Source: Deltaproteobacteria bacterium
Lineage (GTDB): Bacteria > Desulfobacterota > GWC2-55-46
Length of the DNA: 64,000 bases
Assembly (NCBI GenBank): GCA_016234935.1
Contig: JACRNL010000010.1
Span: 276,589-340,588 of the forward strand
Direction of reading: 5' to 3'
Shown here: positions 3,149-60,267 of the stretch, piece by piece
Layout: every line of letters begins with the position of its first letter
How positions within the stretch are numbered: the first letter of the stretch is position 1
Notes under the pieces: generated by a model
The model's input: the letters and a program-made list of their open reading frames with translations, nothing else
Database searches by the model: none
Told to the model about the DNA's origin: nothing
Translations under genes and position numbers: made by a program

Positions 3149-5172
3149 TGCTGCAAACATACTTCGTGGATGTTTCATACCTTGTAGCATCGGTTCTTTT
3201 CGTATTGTGCCTCAAGTTCCTGAACTCGCCTGAGACCGCCAGAAAGGGCGTCCTGCTCGGTGAAATAGGAATGGCCCTTGCCATCATAGGCACGCTTATC
3301 AACCATGAGATCATCACCTACGAGTGGATCATCATAGGCCTCTTTATCGGTTCCATCATAGGCATAGCCATAGCCGTATGGACGCCGATGACGCACATGC
3401 CCCAGCGGACGGCGCTTTCACACGCATTCGGCGCCCTGGCGGTGACCCTCGTCGGAATAGCGGAATTTTACAAACACGGCGCGGACCTCGGCACCATCAA
3501 GACCGCCGCGATAGGCTTTGAGTGCCTTCTCGGCGCGTTGACATTCACCGGCTCCATGCAGGCCTTTTTCAAACTGCAGGAGTGGATGCGCGGCGCGCCA
3601 ATCACCTTCAAGGGCCAGAACGCCCTGAATATGGCCATCCTTGCGGGCATGATCGGGCTTCTCGGCTACATCATCTACGACCCGACCGCTTCATGGGCCT
3701 TTTACCTGATGGTCGCCCTGGGCTTTGCCTTCGGCGTCCTCCTCGTCCTGCCGATAGGCGCGGCGGACATGCCGGTCGTTATTTCTCTTTTAAACTCCTA
3801 CGCGGGACTTGCCGGCTCCGCGACCGGATTCGTGCTTTCAAACAACGTCCTCATCATCGCCGGCGCGCTTGACGGGGCATCCGGAGTCATCCTTTCCATC
3901 ATCATGTGCAAGGCCATGAACAGGTCGATGGCCAACGTCCTTTTCGGCGCATTCGGCTCAAGCACGGCGGGAGCGGCGGCGCCCAAAGTGACTATGCCGT
4001 CTCCAGCCGCCGCATCAGCCGCTCAAGCAGCCCCAACAGGCCCGGTCATAAAGAAACTTACGCCTGAGCAGGCCGGTGGCCTTTTCAAGAACAGGTCCAA
4101 GTCCGTCATAGTCGTGCCCGGCTACGGCATGGCCGCCGCGCAGGCCCAGCACGCCGTCAGGGACCTCGGCGACCAGTTAAAGACCCTCGGCATATCCGTC
4201 AAATACGCCATACACCCCGTAGCGGGCAGGATGCCCGGCCACATGAACGTCCTTCTGGCCGAGGCTAACGTCCCATACACCGACCTCTTTGATATGGAGG
4301 ACATAAACGAGGAGTTCGAGCATACCGACGTAGCCCTTGTTATCGGCGCCAACGACGTCACGAACCCGGCGGCAAGGAACAACGAGCAGTCACCGATATA
4401 CGGTATGCCGATACTGAACGTGGACAAAGCCAGGACCGTCATCGTCTGCAAGCGCTCCATGAGCCCTGGCTTTGCCGGAATAGACAACGAGCTGTATCTC
4501 ATGCCGCAGACCTACATGCTCTTTGGCGACGCCAAGGGTTCCATCGGCAAGCTCGTTGACTCGATAAAGAGCGGCAACGTTGAAGACGTCCCGGTTGAAG
4601 CGCCCGCGGCGGCTGCCGTGACCGGCGGCGGCCCCGCCGTAAAACAGCTCAGCGCCGAACAGGCCTGCGAACTTTTCTCGAAGAAGGCCAAGCGCGTCAT
4701 CATAGTGCCCGGCTACGGCATGGCCGCGGCGCAGGCACAGCATGCGGTCAGGGACCTCGGCGATCTGCTCAAATCAATGGGCGTCAAGGTGAAGTACGCC
4801 ATCCACCCTGTCGCCGGCAGGATGCCCGGCCACATGAACGTACTTCTGGCCGAGGCCAACGTCCCCTACACCGACCTCTTTGACATGGAGGACATAAACG
4901 ACGAGTTCGGAGAAGCCGACGTGGCGCTCGTTGTCGGGGCAAACGACGTCACCAACCCGGCGGCGAAAACCAACCCGCAATCGCCCATCTACGGCATGCC
5001 CATACTCGACGTTGAGCTTGCAAAGACCGTCATCGTGTGCAAACGCTCCATGAAGCCCGGTTTCGCAGGCATTGACAACGACCTGTATCTGATGCCGCAG
5101 ACCTACATGTACTTCGGCGACGCAAAGACATCCATCGGCAAACTTGTTGACGCGATGAAGGCGGCAAAGTAG
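3148..5172 (+). CDS. pntB: NAD(P) transhydrogenase subunit beta with a tandemly duplicated C-terminal NADP(H)-binding dIII domain
   Basis: 674 aa against ~460 expected. The block VIVVPGYGMAAAQAQHAVRDLGD…YLMPQTYM.FGDAK.SIGKLVD occurs twice (aa ~300-470 and ~500-674), at ~85% nt identity between the two copies. Confidence 0.85.
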   Translation: MLQTYFVDVSYLVASVLFVLCLKFLNSPETARKGVLLGEIGMALAIIGTLINHEIITYEWIIIGLFIGSIIGIAIAVWTPMTHMPQRTALSHAFGALAVTLVGIAEFYKHGADLGTIKTAAIGFECLLGALTFTGSMQAFFKLQEWMRGAPITFKGQNALNMAILAGMIGLLGYIIYDPTASWAFYLMVALGFAFGVLLVLPIGAADMPVVISLLNSYAGLAGSATGFVLSNNVLIIAGALDGASGVILSIIMCKAMNRSMANVLFGAFGSSTAGAAAPKVTMPSPAAASAAQAAPTGPVIKKLTPEQAGGLFKNRSKSVIVVPGYGMAAAQAQHAVRDLGDQLKTLGISVKYAIHPVAGRMPGHMNVLLAEANVPYTDLFDMEDINEEFEHTDVALVIGANDVTNPAARNNEQSPIYGMPILNVDKARTVIVCKRSMSPGFAGIDNELYLMPQTYMLFGDAKGSIGKLVDSIKSGNVEDVPVEAPAAAAVTGGGPAVKQLSAEQACELFSKKAKRVIIVPGYGMAAAQAQHAVRDLGDLLKSMGVKVKYAIHPVAGRMPGHMNVLLAEANVPYTDLFDMEDINDEFGEADVALVVGANDVTNPAAKTNPQSPIYGMPILDVELAKTVIVCKRSMKPGFAGIDNDLYLMPQTYMYFGDAKTSIGKLVDAMKAAK

Positions 5173-24659: not shown

Positions 24660-24697
24660 TAATTGACAGTTTGACGCAGGTTTTATATACTTCAGGT

Positions 24698-35050: not shown

Positions 35051-35428
35051 TGCTGTCCTTCTTTCAACCGTTATTGACCCAAAACTTCCCAAACAAGGCT
35101 TGACGCCCCCGCGATACTCAATCCGGCGGAGCGCCCTTGTCTCCGGGCTTCACTTGGCTTGGCGGACAGCTTTTTCCGTTTTCTCCTTGATAAAAGGCGC
35201 AAAAATACTGTTACAGTAACCAGTGGGATTGATAGGGATTTGGTTTTGGTATTTTCTTTGGTAATATGTCGCGCATAGGTAGTTCGTTATGGTATTTTTT
35301 ATGCTGTAGATTTCAGCGCGTCTTGTATAAAGTCTCTACGGATTCCCATCTTGTAAAAAGGAGTTCCCGCAGACCATGACACAAACCTGATTGACGGACA
35401 ATTTCAAAGATAATCTACAATTGTCAAG

Positions 35429-35457
35429 TTGACCGTATATTGCAGCTGAAGTATAAT
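35429..35457 (+). promoter_or_regulatory. consensus sigma70 promoter (TTGACC-N17-TATAAT) in the AT-rich ygiQ leader
   Basis: Sequence ttgaccgtatattgcagctgaagtataat, ~40 nt upstream of the ygiQ ATG. The surrounding ~300 bp are markedly AT-rich. Confidence 0.6.
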
Positions 35458-35494
35458 GATTTTCGACGGTTAATATATTATAGGAAAAAGACCG

Positions 35495-56504: not shown

Positions 56505-56818
56505 CCTCGCCCCCTGCCGCCCCCACCCTGCCCTCCCCCGTAAAGGGGGAGGATAAATGGAAGTGACCATCTCCCGCCGCGCAACTGCCGGAAATATCAT
56601 TAATATTTCAAACATCAGATACATAACACAAAACAGGCGAATTTGCAATTTGCAAATTCGCCTGCGCAAGGTTTTCAAGACGGCTGTCAGCAAAACTCGC
56701 AAGGCGAGGCTGAAGCCTCGCACTACATTCATGGAATTGTGTCATTCCCCTTTTAAAAAAAAGCGGGGACAATTACCGCGTGTGAACATCTTCATAATTC
56801 CCTGAAGGGAATGCCGCT

Positions 56819-57025
56819 TTATTTGTTATTCGTTGTTTTTTTAATTTTATCTAATTTTTTAACTTCTCTTTTTTCAATCCCTTCATTAATCATTTTTCTT
56901 ACCAAGTAGCCAACACTTCTGTCCTCTGACTCAGCATGATATTTAAGTTTTTTATAAACTTCAGGTTCAACACGTATGCAAACTTGAGCGCTCTTTTTAT
57001 CGGTCATCGTCAAACTATAATTCAT
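56819..57025 (-). CDS. CopG/Arc/MetJ-type ribbon-helix-helix protein in an AT-rich (~30% GC) island
   Basis: MNYSLTMTDKKSAQVCIRVEPEVYKKLKYHAESEDRSVGYLVRKMINEGI… is RHH-like. GAGGAG RBS. Coding GC is far below the genome background. Confidence 0.55.
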   Translation of the reverse strand: MNYSLTMTDKKSAQVCIRVEPEVYKKLKYHAESEDRSVGYLVRKMINEGIEKREVKKLDKIKKTTNNK

Positions 57026-57054
57026 ATTTTGATGCTCCTCAATCAAAAAAATGC

Positions 57055-57083
57055 TTGACATTGCGTTGCAATGCAATTATAAT
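57055..57083 (+). promoter_or_regulatory. perfect sigma70 consensus promoter TTGACA-N17-TATAAT, divergent from the RHH gene; spacer contains TTGCAA/ATTGCAAT palindromes
   Basis: Sequence ttgacattgcgttgcaatgcaattataat. No convincing ORF downstream (the 36-codon MRINPETL… ORF lacks an RBS). Would read antisense into the 3' end of the sigma54-regulator gene. Confidence 0.5.
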
Positions 57084-57250
57084 GTCTACATAACACAACG
57101 AAAGATAAAAACACAGGCCGTGTCAATGCGGATTAATCCCGAAACCCTTCAGGTTGTCGAATTTACTGCGCAGAAGGTAAAACGCGCCGTATCCGCCATT
57201 GCAGGGATTATAAATAGACAAAAGGATTTTAAATGATATGGATTTAATTG

Positions 57251-58630
57251 CTAAGCGTTTTTAATCGGCTGCTTGATTCCAAGCGACTTCATTTTCATAA
57301 GAAGGGTGTTCCTGTGGATATTGAGATGCCTTGCGGCCTTTGACTTGTTCCAGTTGGTCTTATTCAATACCTCGACGATGTAATGCCTCTCAAAGCAGAT
57401 CAGGGCCTCATGGAAGTCCTTTGCCTCGTCGATGGAACCGCGCTTTATTCCGGGGCAGAACATATTGACAGGCAGGTCTTTGTAGGTAATGCCGGCGCCG
57501 TCTCTGGCTATGACTACAAGCCTTTCCATGAGGTTTTCAAGCTCCCTTACGTTGCCAGGCCATTCATATTCACAGAGCGCGTCCATCGCATCCTTTGCAA
57601 TGCCTTTGATGGCCTTCCTGCATTTCGCGCAGTGCTTTTTAAGAAAGTGCTCGGCAAGAAGGGGGATGTCCTCTTTCCTCTCGCGAAGCGGAGGAAGCTC
57701 TATGGGCACGACCTTCAGCCTGTAATAGAGGTCTTCCCTGAACCTGCCCTTTTTGACCTCCTGTTCAAGGTCGACGTTCGTCGCGGCAATAACCCTTATG
57801 TCGACCTTTATAGGCACGTTGCCGCCTACCCGTTCAAAGGTCTTCTCCTGCAAGGCGCGAAGGAGCTTTATCTGAAGGTGCATGGGAAGGGTAGCCACCT
57901 CGTCGAAAAATATGGTGCCGCCGTCCGCGTATTCGAACTTGCCGATCTTCCTTGCTATGGCCCCGGTGAAGGCCCCCCTTTCATGGCCGAACAGCTCGCT
58001 TTCCATTAATTCCGACGGGACCGCTCCGCAGTTGACGGCGACAAAAGGCTTGTCCTTCCTTTCGCCCATCGAATAAATGGCCCTTGCGACAAGTTCTTTG
58101 CCGGTTCCGCTTTCGCCGGTTATCAGGACGTTGGAAGAGGTTTTTATGACCGATTCGATGTGCTCCAGCACCTCTTTCATCTTGGGCGAAGCGCTGAGTA
58201 TCTCGCCGTAATACGTGAACTCCTTGAACATCTCTTCCTTAAGGTAGTCCACCTCGTTTTTAAGGTTCACCCTGTCCACATACCTTTTCAGGGTCATCAG
58301 AAGATCATCGCTGTCAAAGGGCTTGGTAACGTAGTCATACGCGCCCTTTTTCAAGGCGGAGACCGCGGTCTTCGCGTTGTCGCTGGCGGAAAGCATGATC
58401 ACGCCGGCTTCGCCGTCAATGGATTTTATCTTTTCAAGCGTTTTAAGCCCGTCCATGCCGGGCAGGTTTACGTCCATCAGGATGATGTCAAAGTGCCTTG
58501 CGCGCACGGCTTCGAGCGACTCGGCGCCGTCCTTTGCGGCGCATATCTCGTAGACGTCCTTTAAAATAAGCTCAAGGCTTTTCCTGACGGAACTATCATC
58601 GTCTACTATCAAAACGGCAAGTTTTTTCAT
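57251..58630 (-). CDS. sigma-54-dependent response regulator (REC-AAA+-Fis HTH, NtrC family)
   Basis: MKKLAVLIVDDD…, GESGTGKELVARAIY, GAFTGA, and a C-terminal HTH. An alternative start lies 19 codons upstream. Confidence 0.85.
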   Translation of the reverse strand: MKKLAVLIVDDDSSVRKSLELILKDVYEICAAKDGAESLEAVRARHFDIILMDVNLPGMDGLKTLEKIKSIDGEAGVIMLSASDNAKTAVSALKKGAYDYVTKPFDSDDLLMTLKRYVDRVNLKNEVDYLKEEMFKEFTYYGEILSASPKMKEVLEHIESVIKTSSNVLITGESGTGKELVARAIYSMGERKDKPFVAVNCGAVPSELMESELFGHERGAFTGAIARKIGKFEYADGGTIFFDEVATLPMHLQIKLLRALQEKTFERVGGNVPIKVDIRVIAATNVDLEQEVKKGRFREDLYYRLKVVPIELPPLRERKEDIPLLAEHFLKKHCAKCRKAIKGIAKDAMDALCEYEWPGNVRELENLMERLVVIARDGAGITYKDLPVNMFCPGIKRGSIDEAKDFHEALICFERHYIVEVLNKTNWNKSKAARHLNIHRNTLLMKMKSLGIKQPIKNA

Positions 58631-58758
58631 TGTGCGCCCGCTGCTCCCGTATTTTCGCTGCATGTCTTTGAGACCTATCGTCATTGATAAACCCCCTGGC
58701 GGGCAATACAAAAACAACACGCATTATTTATTGTAAATAAACAGTTTAACTATTGTGC

Positions 58759-58787
58759 ATTATACGCACATAAACAAACCAAGTCAA
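58759..58787 (-). promoter_or_regulatory. sigma70-like promoter (TTGACT-N17-TATAAT on minus strand) in the AT-rich leader of the sigma54 regulator gene
   Basis: Minus strand reads ttgacttggtttgtttatgtgcgtataat. A second TGcTATAAT extended -10 lies ~80 nt further upstream. Confidence 0.45.
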
Positions 58788-58896: not shown

Positions 58897-60267
58897 TTAC
58901 GTCAACTCTTCGTTTTCTATTCCGTAGCTTTTTATCTTCCTGTAAAGGTGGCTCCTTTCAAGCCCTATGGCCTCCGCCGTCTTTGCGATATTGCCGCCGT
59001 GCTCCCTGAGCTTCCTTAGGATAAACTCCCTTTCAAAATCCCTTCTGGCCTCCTTTATGAGCGCGCTTTTAAAGACGTTGCCGATGGGATGAGCCGACTG
59101 CGCGCCGCGGATGTAAGGCGGGACGTCGTCCGGCATGATAACGTTAGTGGGCGTCATTATGACAAGACGCTCGATGATGTTTTTAAGCTCCCTGACGTTG
59201 CCCGGCCAGCCGTATTTCATCAGTATCCGGACGGCCTCCGGACTTATCGTGAACGCATCCCTTGACGTCTCGCGCGAGAACTCCTTTAAAAAATAGTCGA
59301 TAAAAAGAGGAATATCCTCAGCCCTCTCGCGCAGGGGCGGCACCGCGAACGGGATGACGTTAAGCCGGTAGTATAGGTCCTCCCTGAACGCGCCTTTTAT
59401 TATCTCTTCCCTCAGGTTCTTGTTCGTCGCCGCGATGACCCTTACGTCCACGCTTACGCGCTCGGTCCCGCCCACGCGTTCAAATGTCTGCTCCTGAAGT
59501 ATGCGCAGGACCTTTGCCTGCGTCTTGAGGCTCATGTCGCCAATCTCGTCAAGAAAGATGGTGCCCTTGTCCGCGAGGTCGAACTTGCCCTTCTTCTGCG
59601 CCGCGGCGCCTGTGAAGGCCCCCTTTTCATGGCCGAACAGCTCGCTCTCGATAAGCTCCTCCGGAATGGCGGCGCAGTTGACTTCGACAAAGGGCCTGCC
59701 GCTCCTCAGGGAAAGAAGGTGGATGTTCCTTGCCACGAACTCCTTGCCTGTCCCGTTCTCTCCGGTGATGAGGGCCGTTGAATTGGACGGCGCGGCGCGC
59801 CTTATGGCGCCCACCATGTCTTCAACGGCCTTTGTCTTTCCGATTATTTCATACCTTGCGAGAGCCTTTGCGCGCAGCTCGTTGTTTTCCTCGACAAGAC
59901 GCTTTTGCTCAAGGGCGTGCTCCACGGTGAGTATTACCTTGTCAAGGGAGAGGGGCTTTTCGATGAAGTCATAAGCGCCGAGCTTGGTGGCCTTCACGGC
60001 GGTCTCGATGTTGGCGTGCCCTGAGATCATTATGACCGGCAGGGCGGGGTATTTTTTCTTTATCTCCTTAAGCGCGTCAATGCCGTCCATGCCCGGCAGC
60101 CAGATGTCAAGCAGGACTATCTCAGGGATGCGGCTGTCTAACTTTTTAAGCGCCTCCTCCGCCGAGCCTGCGCTCGCGACCGCATAACCCTCGTCCCTGA
60201 AGACGCCGCCGAGCGCCTCTCTTATGTCTATCTCATCGTCAACTACCATTATATTTTTCACTGTCAA
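58897..60267 (-). CDS. ntrX: sigma-54-dependent response regulator NtrX-like
   Basis: MTVKNIMVVDDEIDIRE…, GENGTGKEFVARNIH, GAFTGA, C-terminal HTH. Immediately downstream of ntrY. Confidence 0.85.
   Translation of the reverse strand: MTVKNIMVVDDEIDIREALGGVFRDEGYAVASAGSAEEALKKLDSRIPEIVLLDIWLPGMDGIDALKEIKKKYPALPVIMISGHANIETAVKATKLGAYDFIEKPLSLDKVILTVEHALEQKRLVEENNELRAKALARYEIIGKTKAVEDMVGAIRRAAPSNSTALITGENGTGKEFVARNIHLLSLRSGRPFVEVNCAAIPEELIESELFGHEKGAFTGAAAQKKGKFDLADKGTIFLDEIGDMSLKTQAKVLRILQEQTFERVGGTERVSVDVRVIAATNKNLREEIIKGAFREDLYYRLNVIPFAVPPLRERAEDIPLFIDYFLKEFSRETSRDAFTISPEAVRILMKYGWPGNVRELKNIIERLVIMTPTNVIMPDDVPPYIRGAQSAHPIGNVFKSALIKEARRDFEREFILRKLREHGGNIAKTAEAIGLERSHLYRKIKSYGIENEELT

Follow-up and report, generated by a model that had tools for sequence, protein, structure and literature searches.

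The CI/Cro switch of phage lambda, with its PRM/PR/OR architecture, is one of the described systems against which a small immunity region can be compared. Another is dicA/dicC of Escherichia coli, the orphan immunity region of the cryptic prophage Qin, which keeps kilobases of DNA including the toxic dicB/dicF. A third is immI of phage P22, where Arc and Mnt are both ribbon-helix-helix (RHH) proteins with overlapping promoters. Within immI, Mnt represses arc-ant, while Arc represses mnt and moderates ant (PMC11016777). Here we analyze an AT-rich island of ~600 bp that lies between a sigma54-activator gene (sig54A) and yebC in a 64,000-nucleotide (nt) stretch – hereafter the window – of contig JACRNL010000010.1 from a Deltaproteobacteria bacterium (GCA_016234935.1). 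We conclude that the island is, in all likelihood, the decayed immunity region (lysis/lysogeny switch) of an integrative temperate-phage-like element. An intact RHH repressor gene (RHH1), its control region, and a pseudogenized second RHH gene (RHH2) survive in the window, while the integrase and other element genes are gone. From its conserved genomic context we infer that RHH1 was the CI/Mnt-like maintenance repressor of this relic switch. The parts of the switch are as follows.

57025..56819 (including the stop codon), minus strand: RHH1, an intact RHH repressor gene of 68 amino acids (aa), identified with Pfam, PHROG, and an AlphaFold2 model
57035..57040, minus strand: RHH1 Shine-Dalgarno sequence GAGGAG, 9 nt upstream, read from the sequence and invariant in the four host-lineage variants
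57050..57078, no strand assigned: switch core, a 29-nt block with the operator, the palindrome, and the P(+) -35, invariant in 4/4 host-lineage variants
57051-57075, minus-strand reading TGCAT TGCAA CGCAA TGTCA AGCAT: putative TGCAW pentamer operator, a pattern unique in the window
57055..57083, plus strand: P(+), the RHH2-ward 'PR-like' promoter (TTGACA at 57055-57060, 17 nt, TATAAT at 57078-57083), matching 12/12 sigma70 consensus positions
57076..57081, minus strand: candidate RHH1-ward 'PRM-like' -10, TATAAT, kept in the variants and of putative function
57090..57236, plus strand: relic RHH2, a Cro/Arc-like second RHH gene, identified by hhalign, BLASTP, colinearity, the ratio of nonsynonymous to synonymous substitution rates (dN/dS), and lesions
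57126-57236, plus strand: ORF2, a 36-aa open reading frame (ORF) that begins at an internal ATG

The arrangement resembles that of P22 immI: two divergent small RHH repressors share one short control region with overlapping promoters and operators inside the promoters. RHH1 and the RHH2 proteins of its relatives match PHROG 'Arc-like repressor' families, and Arc is among the best fold matches of RHH1 (27-30% identity), though relatedness is not demonstrable beyond the RHH superfamily. P22 immI, however, is a secondary immunity region that controls the antirepressor gene ant downstream of arc, whereas RHH2 is followed in the relatives by a CII-like or helix-turn-helix (HTH) regulator rather than an Ant homolog, and in the window by nothing. 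The operators also differ, being TGCAW pentamer arrays rather than Arc/Mnt operators, and the gene on the Arc side has become a pseudogene in the window. Since the RHH2 side leads to CII-like or early genes and the RHH1 side to an integrase, the pair holds the position of a primary CI/Cro switch.

The order of integrase-side repressor, control region, cro-like gene, and cII-like gene is that of lambda, as are the strong rightward promoter set against a weak leftward one with a poor -35 and the repeated operators that overlap both. Unlike CI and Cro, both regulators are RHH proteins and paralogs of one another rather than HTH proteins. The RHH pair has no LexA/CI-type autocleavage domain, so induction must differ from that of lambda. 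Leaderless transcription, in most relatives, appears to affect the cro-like gene instead of cI, and the control region is far more compact, with 64-104 nt from one start codon to the other. The dicA/dicC locus offers a parallel for the present state: there too a decayed prophage leaves a divergent repressor/cro-like pair, and the repressor is kept to silence what lies downstream of the opposing promoter. In our case only ~600 bp are left, the cro-like gene is dead, a harmful downstream gene is not evident, and RHH1 and RHH2 belong to a different fold class from the HTH proteins DicA and DicC. Finally, RHH1 shares its fold and Pfam family with CopG/RHH_1 repressors and with RHH domains such as those in structures 6iya and 2jxg, but has no rep gene, toxin partner, or enzyme fusion; its conserved context suggests the role of a phage switch repressor.

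RHH1 and its control region

RHH1 is a member of the RHH_1 superfamily. The protein matches Pfam RHH_1 (PF01402) with 22.6 bits against a gathering cut-off of 20.5 (E = 9.7e-5, residues 17-52) and two PHROG 'Arc-like repressor' families (E = 1.2e-5 and 2.3e-5), and its family profile matches the solved RHH domains of PutA (2jxg, E = 2e-5) and CopA_SO (6iya, E = 5e-5). An AlphaFold model made on the family alignment has an extended N-terminus before residue 21 and helices at residues 21-33 and 38-65, with a four-residue E-D-R-S turn between them and a predicted local distance difference test score (pLDDT) of 84-96 over residues 11-50. DSSP leaves the strand unassigned because it pairs only in the dimer. 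Nearly all of the top 20 Foldseek matches in the PDB are RHH proteins (root-mean-square deviation 0.8-2.7 A over 40-45 residues). The best is CopA_SO (6iya; template modeling scores 0.63/0.88), and the matches also include Arc (1par), CopG, ParG, and AmrZ. The N-terminus is conserved in the family alignment, which supports the ATG at 57025 as the start codon. A leaderless start at Met7 from TTGAGG-17-TATAGT (57042..57014) is possible; the match is of chance level.

We compared the window with three further variants of the host lineage, which are short contigs from Logan (L001, L002) and from an ENA metagenome (L094). All three carry the same locus at ~92% nucleotide identity to the window. RHH1 is under purifying selection: against L001 it has 10 synonymous and 6 nonsynonymous changes (dN/dS 0.11; 6/68 residues changed), against L002 the dN/dS is 0.07, and the synonymous excess has P = 1e-4. 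L001 and L002 differ from one another at 0-3 positions in the ~500 nt that run from the switch across RHH1 up to the yebC promoter and by 15-16% in the relic RHH2 region and the sig54A 3' end, which suggests a recombination breakpoint at the switch. Close relatives of RHH1 were few. An exact-protein look-up returned no record, a word-index search found the two near-identical Logan contigs L001 and L002 only, and a JGI metagenome scan with the single protein gave no match. A second metagenome scan, with alignment A8, found one variant, L094, whose RHH1 is 97% identical.

The exact TTGACA-N17-TATAAT promoter that a sequence-only reading of this DNA had placed divergent from RHH1 is present at 57055-57083, with a predicted transcription start at ~57090. 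The window contains four sites with at most one mismatch to the sigma70 consensus, where 0.10 are expected and none of 100 shuffles reaches four. Its spacer includes an imperfect 18-nt palindrome, ATTGCGTTGCAATGCAAT (57060-57077), that is unique in the window. The same reading had proposed the palindromic spacer as an operator for the RHH dimer, and the spacer repeats are indeed very probably the RHH1 operator, judging from their conservation together with the protein family in other loci. The candidate RHH1-ward -10 overlaps the P(+) -10 on the opposite strand, ATTATAAT being palindromic. An alternative RHH1 promoter on the minus strand, TAGACA (57088-57083)-17-CGCAAT, is not favored, as its -10 lacks the key A2. 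We found no terminator-like site between the sig54A stop codon and RHH1, and thus RHH1 may also be expressed by read-through from sig54A.

The two -10 elements have fared differently in the variants. On the RHH1 side, TATAAT is kept in L001 and L002 and becomes TAAAAT in L094, whereas the P(+) -10 changes from TATAAT in the window to TATACT in L001 and L002 and to TTTACT in L094. Because the variants keep the RHH1-ward -10 and lose that of P(+), the perfect promoter is best understood as an ancestral state that the window has preserved rather than as a specially selected feature.

The other near-consensus sigma70 sites are at 24663-24691 (plus), 35429-35457 (plus), and 58759-58787 (minus). The second of these lies in another AT-rich intergenic region (35051-35494, GC 0.43). 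The third is upstream of the sigma54-activator gene; canonical sigma70 promoters are thus evidently used by the host.

Relatives of RHH1 and the relic of RHH2

An exhaustive HMMER search of 1.84e9 representatives yielded only 14 RHH1 relatives at E <= 1e-3, the best of which are 61-65% identical, and a profile search of a 5.8-billion collection yielded 16. We looked up the closest homologs and obtained six contexts with enough DNA to read (L083/L091, L084, L085, L086, L092, and L093). In 6/6, the RHH1 homolog and a second small RHH gene (55-59 aa) are transcribed away from each other, with 64-104 nt between the two start codons. The second gene, RHH2, is a called gene in L083 and L093; in the other relatives it can be read from 'intergenic' DNA. 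The RHH1 and RHH2 families are paralogs (hhalign Prob 98.3%, E = 1.4e-14), and the relatives' RHH2 proteins match PHROG 'Arc-like repressor' families (E ~1e-5).

The genes around the pair are those of mobile elements. On the 3' side of RHH1 homologs are a small lipoprotein-like or membrane-like ORF, a DnaJ-domain protein, and a tyrosine integrase (phrog_1); the integrase is downstream in L083 and L084 (E = 3.7e-57 and 9.8e-61), and in L086 an N-terminal fragment that looks by eye like an integrase (unscored) directly follows the RHH1 homolog. On the other side, RHH2 is followed in L086 by a CII-like activator (phrog_101, E = 4e-4), in L093 and L083 by visibly CII-like proteins that are unscored or have no match, and in L084 by a protein matching an HTH 'transcriptional repressor' family. 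An HNH endonuclease lies further along the RHH2 side in L083/L091. The far side of L091, a 30-kb contig from Logan run SRR19611661, encodes a GH108 endolysin (phrog_315, E = 3.6e-30) and large unannotated proteins. The integrase, CII-like, HNH, and endolysin contexts place the RHH1 family in integrative temperate-phage-like elements. In the relatives, RHH1 appears to occupy the maintenance-repressor position and RHH2 the Cro position, going by gene order. One distant relative, P0007, is in a different integrase/VapE element. Two other distant matches, P0009 (295 aa) and P0010 (197 aa), have three or four tandem RHH-like repeats per chain; the RHH fold normally dimerizes, and tandem repeats in a single chain are unusual.

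These contexts bear on two other origins for RHH1. The sequence-only reading had entertained a toxin-antitoxin-like remnant – an antitoxin without its toxin – and RHH1 might accordingly be a type II antitoxin whose toxin gene was lost. RHH antitoxins are common, the fold is closest to that of the DNA-binding domain in the antitoxin CopA_SO, and there are weak matches to an NCBIfam RelB family (E = 6.8e-5, 23 bits) and to Pfam HicB (E = 0.11). The antitoxin models nevertheless score far below their cut-offs of 50 (NF048017, 23 bits; NF046040, 15.6 bits), PADLOC gave no match, and a toxin-like gene co-transcribed downstream was found in 0/7 homolog contexts, where the conserved partner is instead the divergent second RHH gene. 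In the window itself, the 180 nt downstream of RHH1 are hairpins with no ORF remnant. We therefore regard an orphan antitoxin as highly improbable.

Even more improbable, to the point where we give it almost no weight, is descent from an integrated plasmid, with RHH1 a CopG copy-number repressor or a ParG/omega-like partition protein. The Pfam family is named after CopG, and RHH1 weakly matches NikA-like proteins (E = 0.003) and a PHROG 'partition protein' (E = 0.005). Tandem short operator repeats also recall omega heptads. Yet no homolog is adjoined by a rep, par, or mob gene, the contexts being integrase, CII-like, and endolysin genes, and tblastn against PLSDB returned only insignificant matches (E at least 0.09).

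The control region is conserved in DNA across loci whose proteins are only 45-65% identical. When family loci are aligned on the RHH2-sense strand, an exact TTGACA is found in 9/9, followed by a spacer of 17-18 nt made of TGCA(W) pentamers (for example, TTGCATTGCATTGCATT in L092 and TTGCGTTGCAATGCAAT in the window) and a -10 that reads TATAAT, TAATAT, TATATT, or TATTGT. In L084, L085, L086, L092, and L093, the RHH2 ATG lies 7-8 nt past the -10, so the RHH2 mRNA of these relatives would be leaderless; RHH2 of L083 instead has a leader with a Shine-Dalgarno sequence and a second set of pentamers. The RHH1-sense -10 in the phage loci, which again overlaps the other -10 and lacks a good -35, is TATAAT (L083), TATCAT (L084), or TACAAT (L086). 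Residue 18 of RHH1 (window numbering), within the beta-strand I-R-V/L/I-E, is Arg in the five loci with TGCA-type pentamers (the window lineage, L083, L084, L085, and L092) and Lys in the two with TACAAT/GTAAT-type spacers (L086 and L093). This may be protein-DNA covariation that marks a base-contacting residue, and would favor assigning these operators to RHH1 – a hint from a small sample.

The family provided a key to the stretch that P(+) faces in the window. Positions 57090-57250 had been described as having no convincing ORF, but they hold the 36-aa ORF2, which is the relic of a second RHH gene. Translated from 57090, six nt past the -10, the window reads ITQRKIKTQAVSMRINPETLQVVEFTAQKVKRAVSAIAGIINRQKDFK and is colinear with full-length RHH2 proteins. 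The RHH2 family matches ORF2 by hhalign (Prob 94.2%, E = 1.1e-7), and the relic stretch matches the RHH2 of L086 by BLASTP (E = 3e-6). A similarity of ORF2 to RuvC (Pfam E = 0.038) is noise.

The relic has been damaged repeatedly. Where L085 begins GTCTC ATG ATT AAA CAT GAG, the window has GTCTAC ATA ACA CAA CGA AAG, and the former leaderless start codon is thus ATA (57090-57092). L001 and L002 have ACA at this position plus a 2-nt deletion; L094 keeps the ATG and has a 2-nt deletion that shifts the frame; and L002 carries a further 1-nt deletion, also a frameshift. The SNLVR motif at the start of helix B, invariant in the RHH2 family, is SAIAG in the window. Against L001, ORF2 has a dN/dS of 0.78, indistinguishable from neutral, with 4, 7, and 7 changes at the three codon positions and 11/36 residues changed. 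The relic stretch is the fastest-evolving part of the locus (16% divergence versus ~7-8%). The independent lesions and the neutral dN/dS indicate that the relic RHH2 is a pseudogene and the 36-aa ORF its remnant.

We weighed two ways in which this stretch might still be functional. One is a live two-gene switch, with ORF2 as a working minimal RHH protein in a host-domesticated bistable or autoregulatory module. The window, L001, and L094 all have an open ORF2 frame, and in L001 a gene caller called it. ORF2 keeps the beta-strand (MRINPETL) and the R-x-V-S turn and weakly resembles the PHROG Arc-like family of RHH1 (E = 0.28). We nonetheless find this reading very unlikely given the neutral dN/dS and the 11/36 changed residues, against 6/68 in RHH1 over the same comparison; the frameshift in L002; the loss of the family start codon and the N-terminal 12 residues through lesions that differ among variants; the change from SNLVR to SAIAG; and the weak ORF2 Shine-Dalgarno sequence.

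The other is an RHH-controlled small RNA or antisense transcript, a possibility raised by the sequence-only reading. A P(+) transcript from 57090 to ~57290 would then act on the sigma54 activator, either through convergent transcription or by antisense pairing at the 3' end. An exact consensus promoter is aimed at the activator 3' end from 160 nt away, a weak terminator-like hairpin lies in the activator gene at 57270-57285, and a relic promoter could be co-opted. The supposed antisense overlap of 57090-57250 with the activator 3' end does not exist, however, since that coding sequence (CDS) ends at 57251; P(+) and the activator are convergent, and a transcript becomes antisense only by reading through past 57251. 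The promoter faces an RHH2 homolog, so that any transcript would come from what was once a protein-coding gene. The predicted RNA fold of 57090-57300 is no more stable than those of shuffled sequences (z = +0.37), Rfam gave no match above chance at E = 10 in the region and none at gathering score in the whole window, and the stretch diverges fast, as described above. The P(+) -10 decays in relatives, where TTTACT has lost the key A2, which argues against selection on a plus-strand transcript. An RHH-small RNA module is, on balance, quite unlikely. The hairpin mentioned above (GCTTG-ATTC-CAAGC plus a T-rich tail, plus strand) falls within the last codons of the activator gene. L001 conserves this hairpin, L002 does so in part, and L063, a genome of a sister species (see below), lacks it; it could stop P(+) transcripts.

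Island limits and neighboring genes

The features that surround the switch are listed below.

56655..57265 (approximate, ~600 bp), no strand assigned: lineage-specific AT-rich island, delimited by homology and the GC profile
56633..56818, minus strand: 3' untranslated region of RHH1, with four hairpins (fold z = -4.92; 0/200 shuffles fold as well)
56634-56664, to 56633, minus strand: intrinsic terminator of RHH1, a perfect 15-bp stem and U-tract, from a terminator scan and the inverted repeat
56620-56648, minus strand: candidate yebC promoter TTGCAA-17-TATGTA, conserved in L063
55752-56504, minus strand: yebC, with ruvC and ruvA downstream
57251-58684 (58720 if the first in-frame GTG is used), minus strand: sig54A, the island-side NtrC-type sigma54 activator
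58897-60267, minus strand: sig54B, a second tandem NtrC-type sigma54 activator

Compositionally the island stands apart. The 400-nt bin 56801-57200 has a GC content of 0.36, the lowest of the 160 bins of the window. The sequence-only reading thus recognized an AT-rich island correctly, but set it against a background of ~58% GC where the window mean is ~0.55. It was also right about a 68-aa RHH protein with AT-rich codon usage: the RHH1 CDS has a GC content of 0.295 and a third-codon-position GC content (GC3) of 0.261, whereas 50 long ORFs of the window have a GC3 of 0.672 +/- 0.065 (minimum 0.503). Small genes as such are not AT-rich in this window, as its 8 other small ORFs have a GC3 of 0.53-0.72, and RHH1 is therefore a true compositional outlier.

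In a scan of one genome per species, the nearest genomes by YebC are metagenome-assembled genomes of uncultured groundwater 'Deltaproteobacteria'/Thermodesulfobacteriota, at 70-78% YebC identity. Two of these, L063 and L005, keep the order sig54B-sig54A-...-yebC with a gap that has no RHH gene and is filled by GC-rich repeats in L063 and by three unrelated genes in L005. Their homology to the window ends 4-5 codons short of the sig54A stop (~57265) and restarts at ~56650-56652, at the candidate yebC promoter with its conserved TTGCAA-17-TATGTA. These breaks define a lineage-specific island of ~600 bp. The absence of the island in the face of this synteny, together with its foreign composition, supports the earlier proposal of horizontal acquisition.

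An exact 12-nt direct repeat, TACATAACACAA, occurs at 56620-56631 and 57087-57098, 467 nt apart, and seemingly brackets the island. We rejected it as a target-site duplication and consider it probably a chance repeat, because copy 1, which is the -10 region of the candidate yebC promoter, is ancestral and conserved along with the upstream TTGCAA in the island-less L063, and because copy 2, at the relic RHH2 start, falls within the N-terminal part of that gene, where L001, L002, and L094 do not share it. A tRNA as integration site was likewise rejected, with zero tRNAs in the window.

At the yebC end, the terminator of RHH1 is the inverted repeat CAGGCGAATTTGCAA-N-TTGCAAATTCGCCTG, which contains two TTGCAA motifs like those of the RHH operator, and the hairpin overlaps the candidate yebC -35. 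L063 has a single TTGCAA at this place and lacks the palindrome. The 180 nt downstream of RHH1 contain no ORF remnant, only hairpins. Directly upstream of the yebC start, at 56505-56560, we observed GC-rich C-tract/G-tract repeats (CCCTGCCGCCCCC...) whose length differs among close variants (gaps in the L001 and L094 alignments). In L063, such repeats form large inverted GC-rich blocks (<=83% GC) at 4480-4640 and 4760-4870, around an AT-rich promoter.

Proposed action and persistence of the repressor

By analogy with CI at OR/PR or Mnt at Pant, RHH1 dimers would bind the TGCAW repeats and the palindrome (57051-57077) that fill the P(+) spacer. RHH proteins, as homodimers, insert an antiparallel beta-ribbon into the major groove at repeated operator half-sites, and TGCAW repeats together with a palindrome adjoin the gene in every family locus. 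Bound RHH1 would then occlude RNA polymerase and shut off rightward transcription from P(+). At higher occupancy it might also block its own weak, overlapping promoter, which lacks a -35, giving autoregulation.

Several points weigh against a decayed phage switch. We infer both the binding of RHH1 dimers to the spacer repeats and the activity of P(+) from sequence, and the RHH1-ward candidate promoter has no recognizable -35. The invariance of the 29-32-nt core block is marginal by itself at ~8-10% divergence (~0.03-0.05). ORF2 is an open 36-aa frame in 3/4 variants, and a residual small protein is possible. The window retains no integrase, att site, tRNA, or other phage gene, and host genes flank the island, so that the prophage origin rests on homologs and not on the locus. 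The two-repressor divergent architecture is seen in the window with its second gene as a pseudogene only, and the linkage to integrase or early genes is seen in relatives (L083 and L084; L091) and not in the window. Searches that included IMG/VR, INPHARED, and PLSDB did not turn up a parent element, which would have an RHH1 of above 90% identity in phage surroundings: scans of IMG/VR with the single RHH1 protein and with the A8 alignment gave no match, and tblastn against INPHARED phages and PLSDB plasmids gave only insignificant RHH matches. Likewise, none of the relatives yielded an identifiable capsid or terminase gene. Only L091 has DNA enough to show lysis and large unknown genes, and the label 'phage', rather than some other integrative element, is thus likely but short of full proof.

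The most economical reading of the present state is that RHH1 is an orphan prophage repressor. It could have been kept for immunity to related phages, to silence a consensus promoter aimed at the activator 3' end, or both. Immunity is possible because L086, an intact element at 61% identity, was recovered from the run series that also gave L001 and L002. That too little time has passed for RHH1 to decay is argued against by the purifying selection on it. Co-option by the host is a further, if unlikely, explanation of its persistence. RHH1 and the consensus promoter may form a self-enforcing pair, in which a cell that lost RHH1 would have a full-strength promoter reading into the 3' end of the sigma54-activator gene, and/or RHH1 may now bind the TTGCAA-containing palindrome at 56634-56664, which overlaps the candidate -35 of yebC-ruvCAB. 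If true, such binding would put Holliday-junction resolution genes under a phage-derived repressor.

A by-product of this analysis is what appears to be a group of rare, apparently undescribed temperate phage-like elements in environmental hosts of Thermodesulfobacteriota type (L091, L084, L085, L086, L092, and L093), for which IMG/VR and INPHARED gave no match. Judging from their gene and promoter arrangement, their primary switch appears to be built of two paralogous RHH proteins instead of HTH proteins, with pentamer-repeat operators and a mostly leaderless cro-like mRNA. An RHH/RHH switch of this kind may be of use to studies of lysis/lysogeny-switch diversity, yet it is a variation on a well-known theme. 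As an immunity region, the island itself would be an ordinary kind of genomic fossil, in which a repressor and its operator outlive everything they once controlled. It would be a small, clean case of prophage decay in which orphan regulators and very strong orphan promoters end up beside host regulatory genes.

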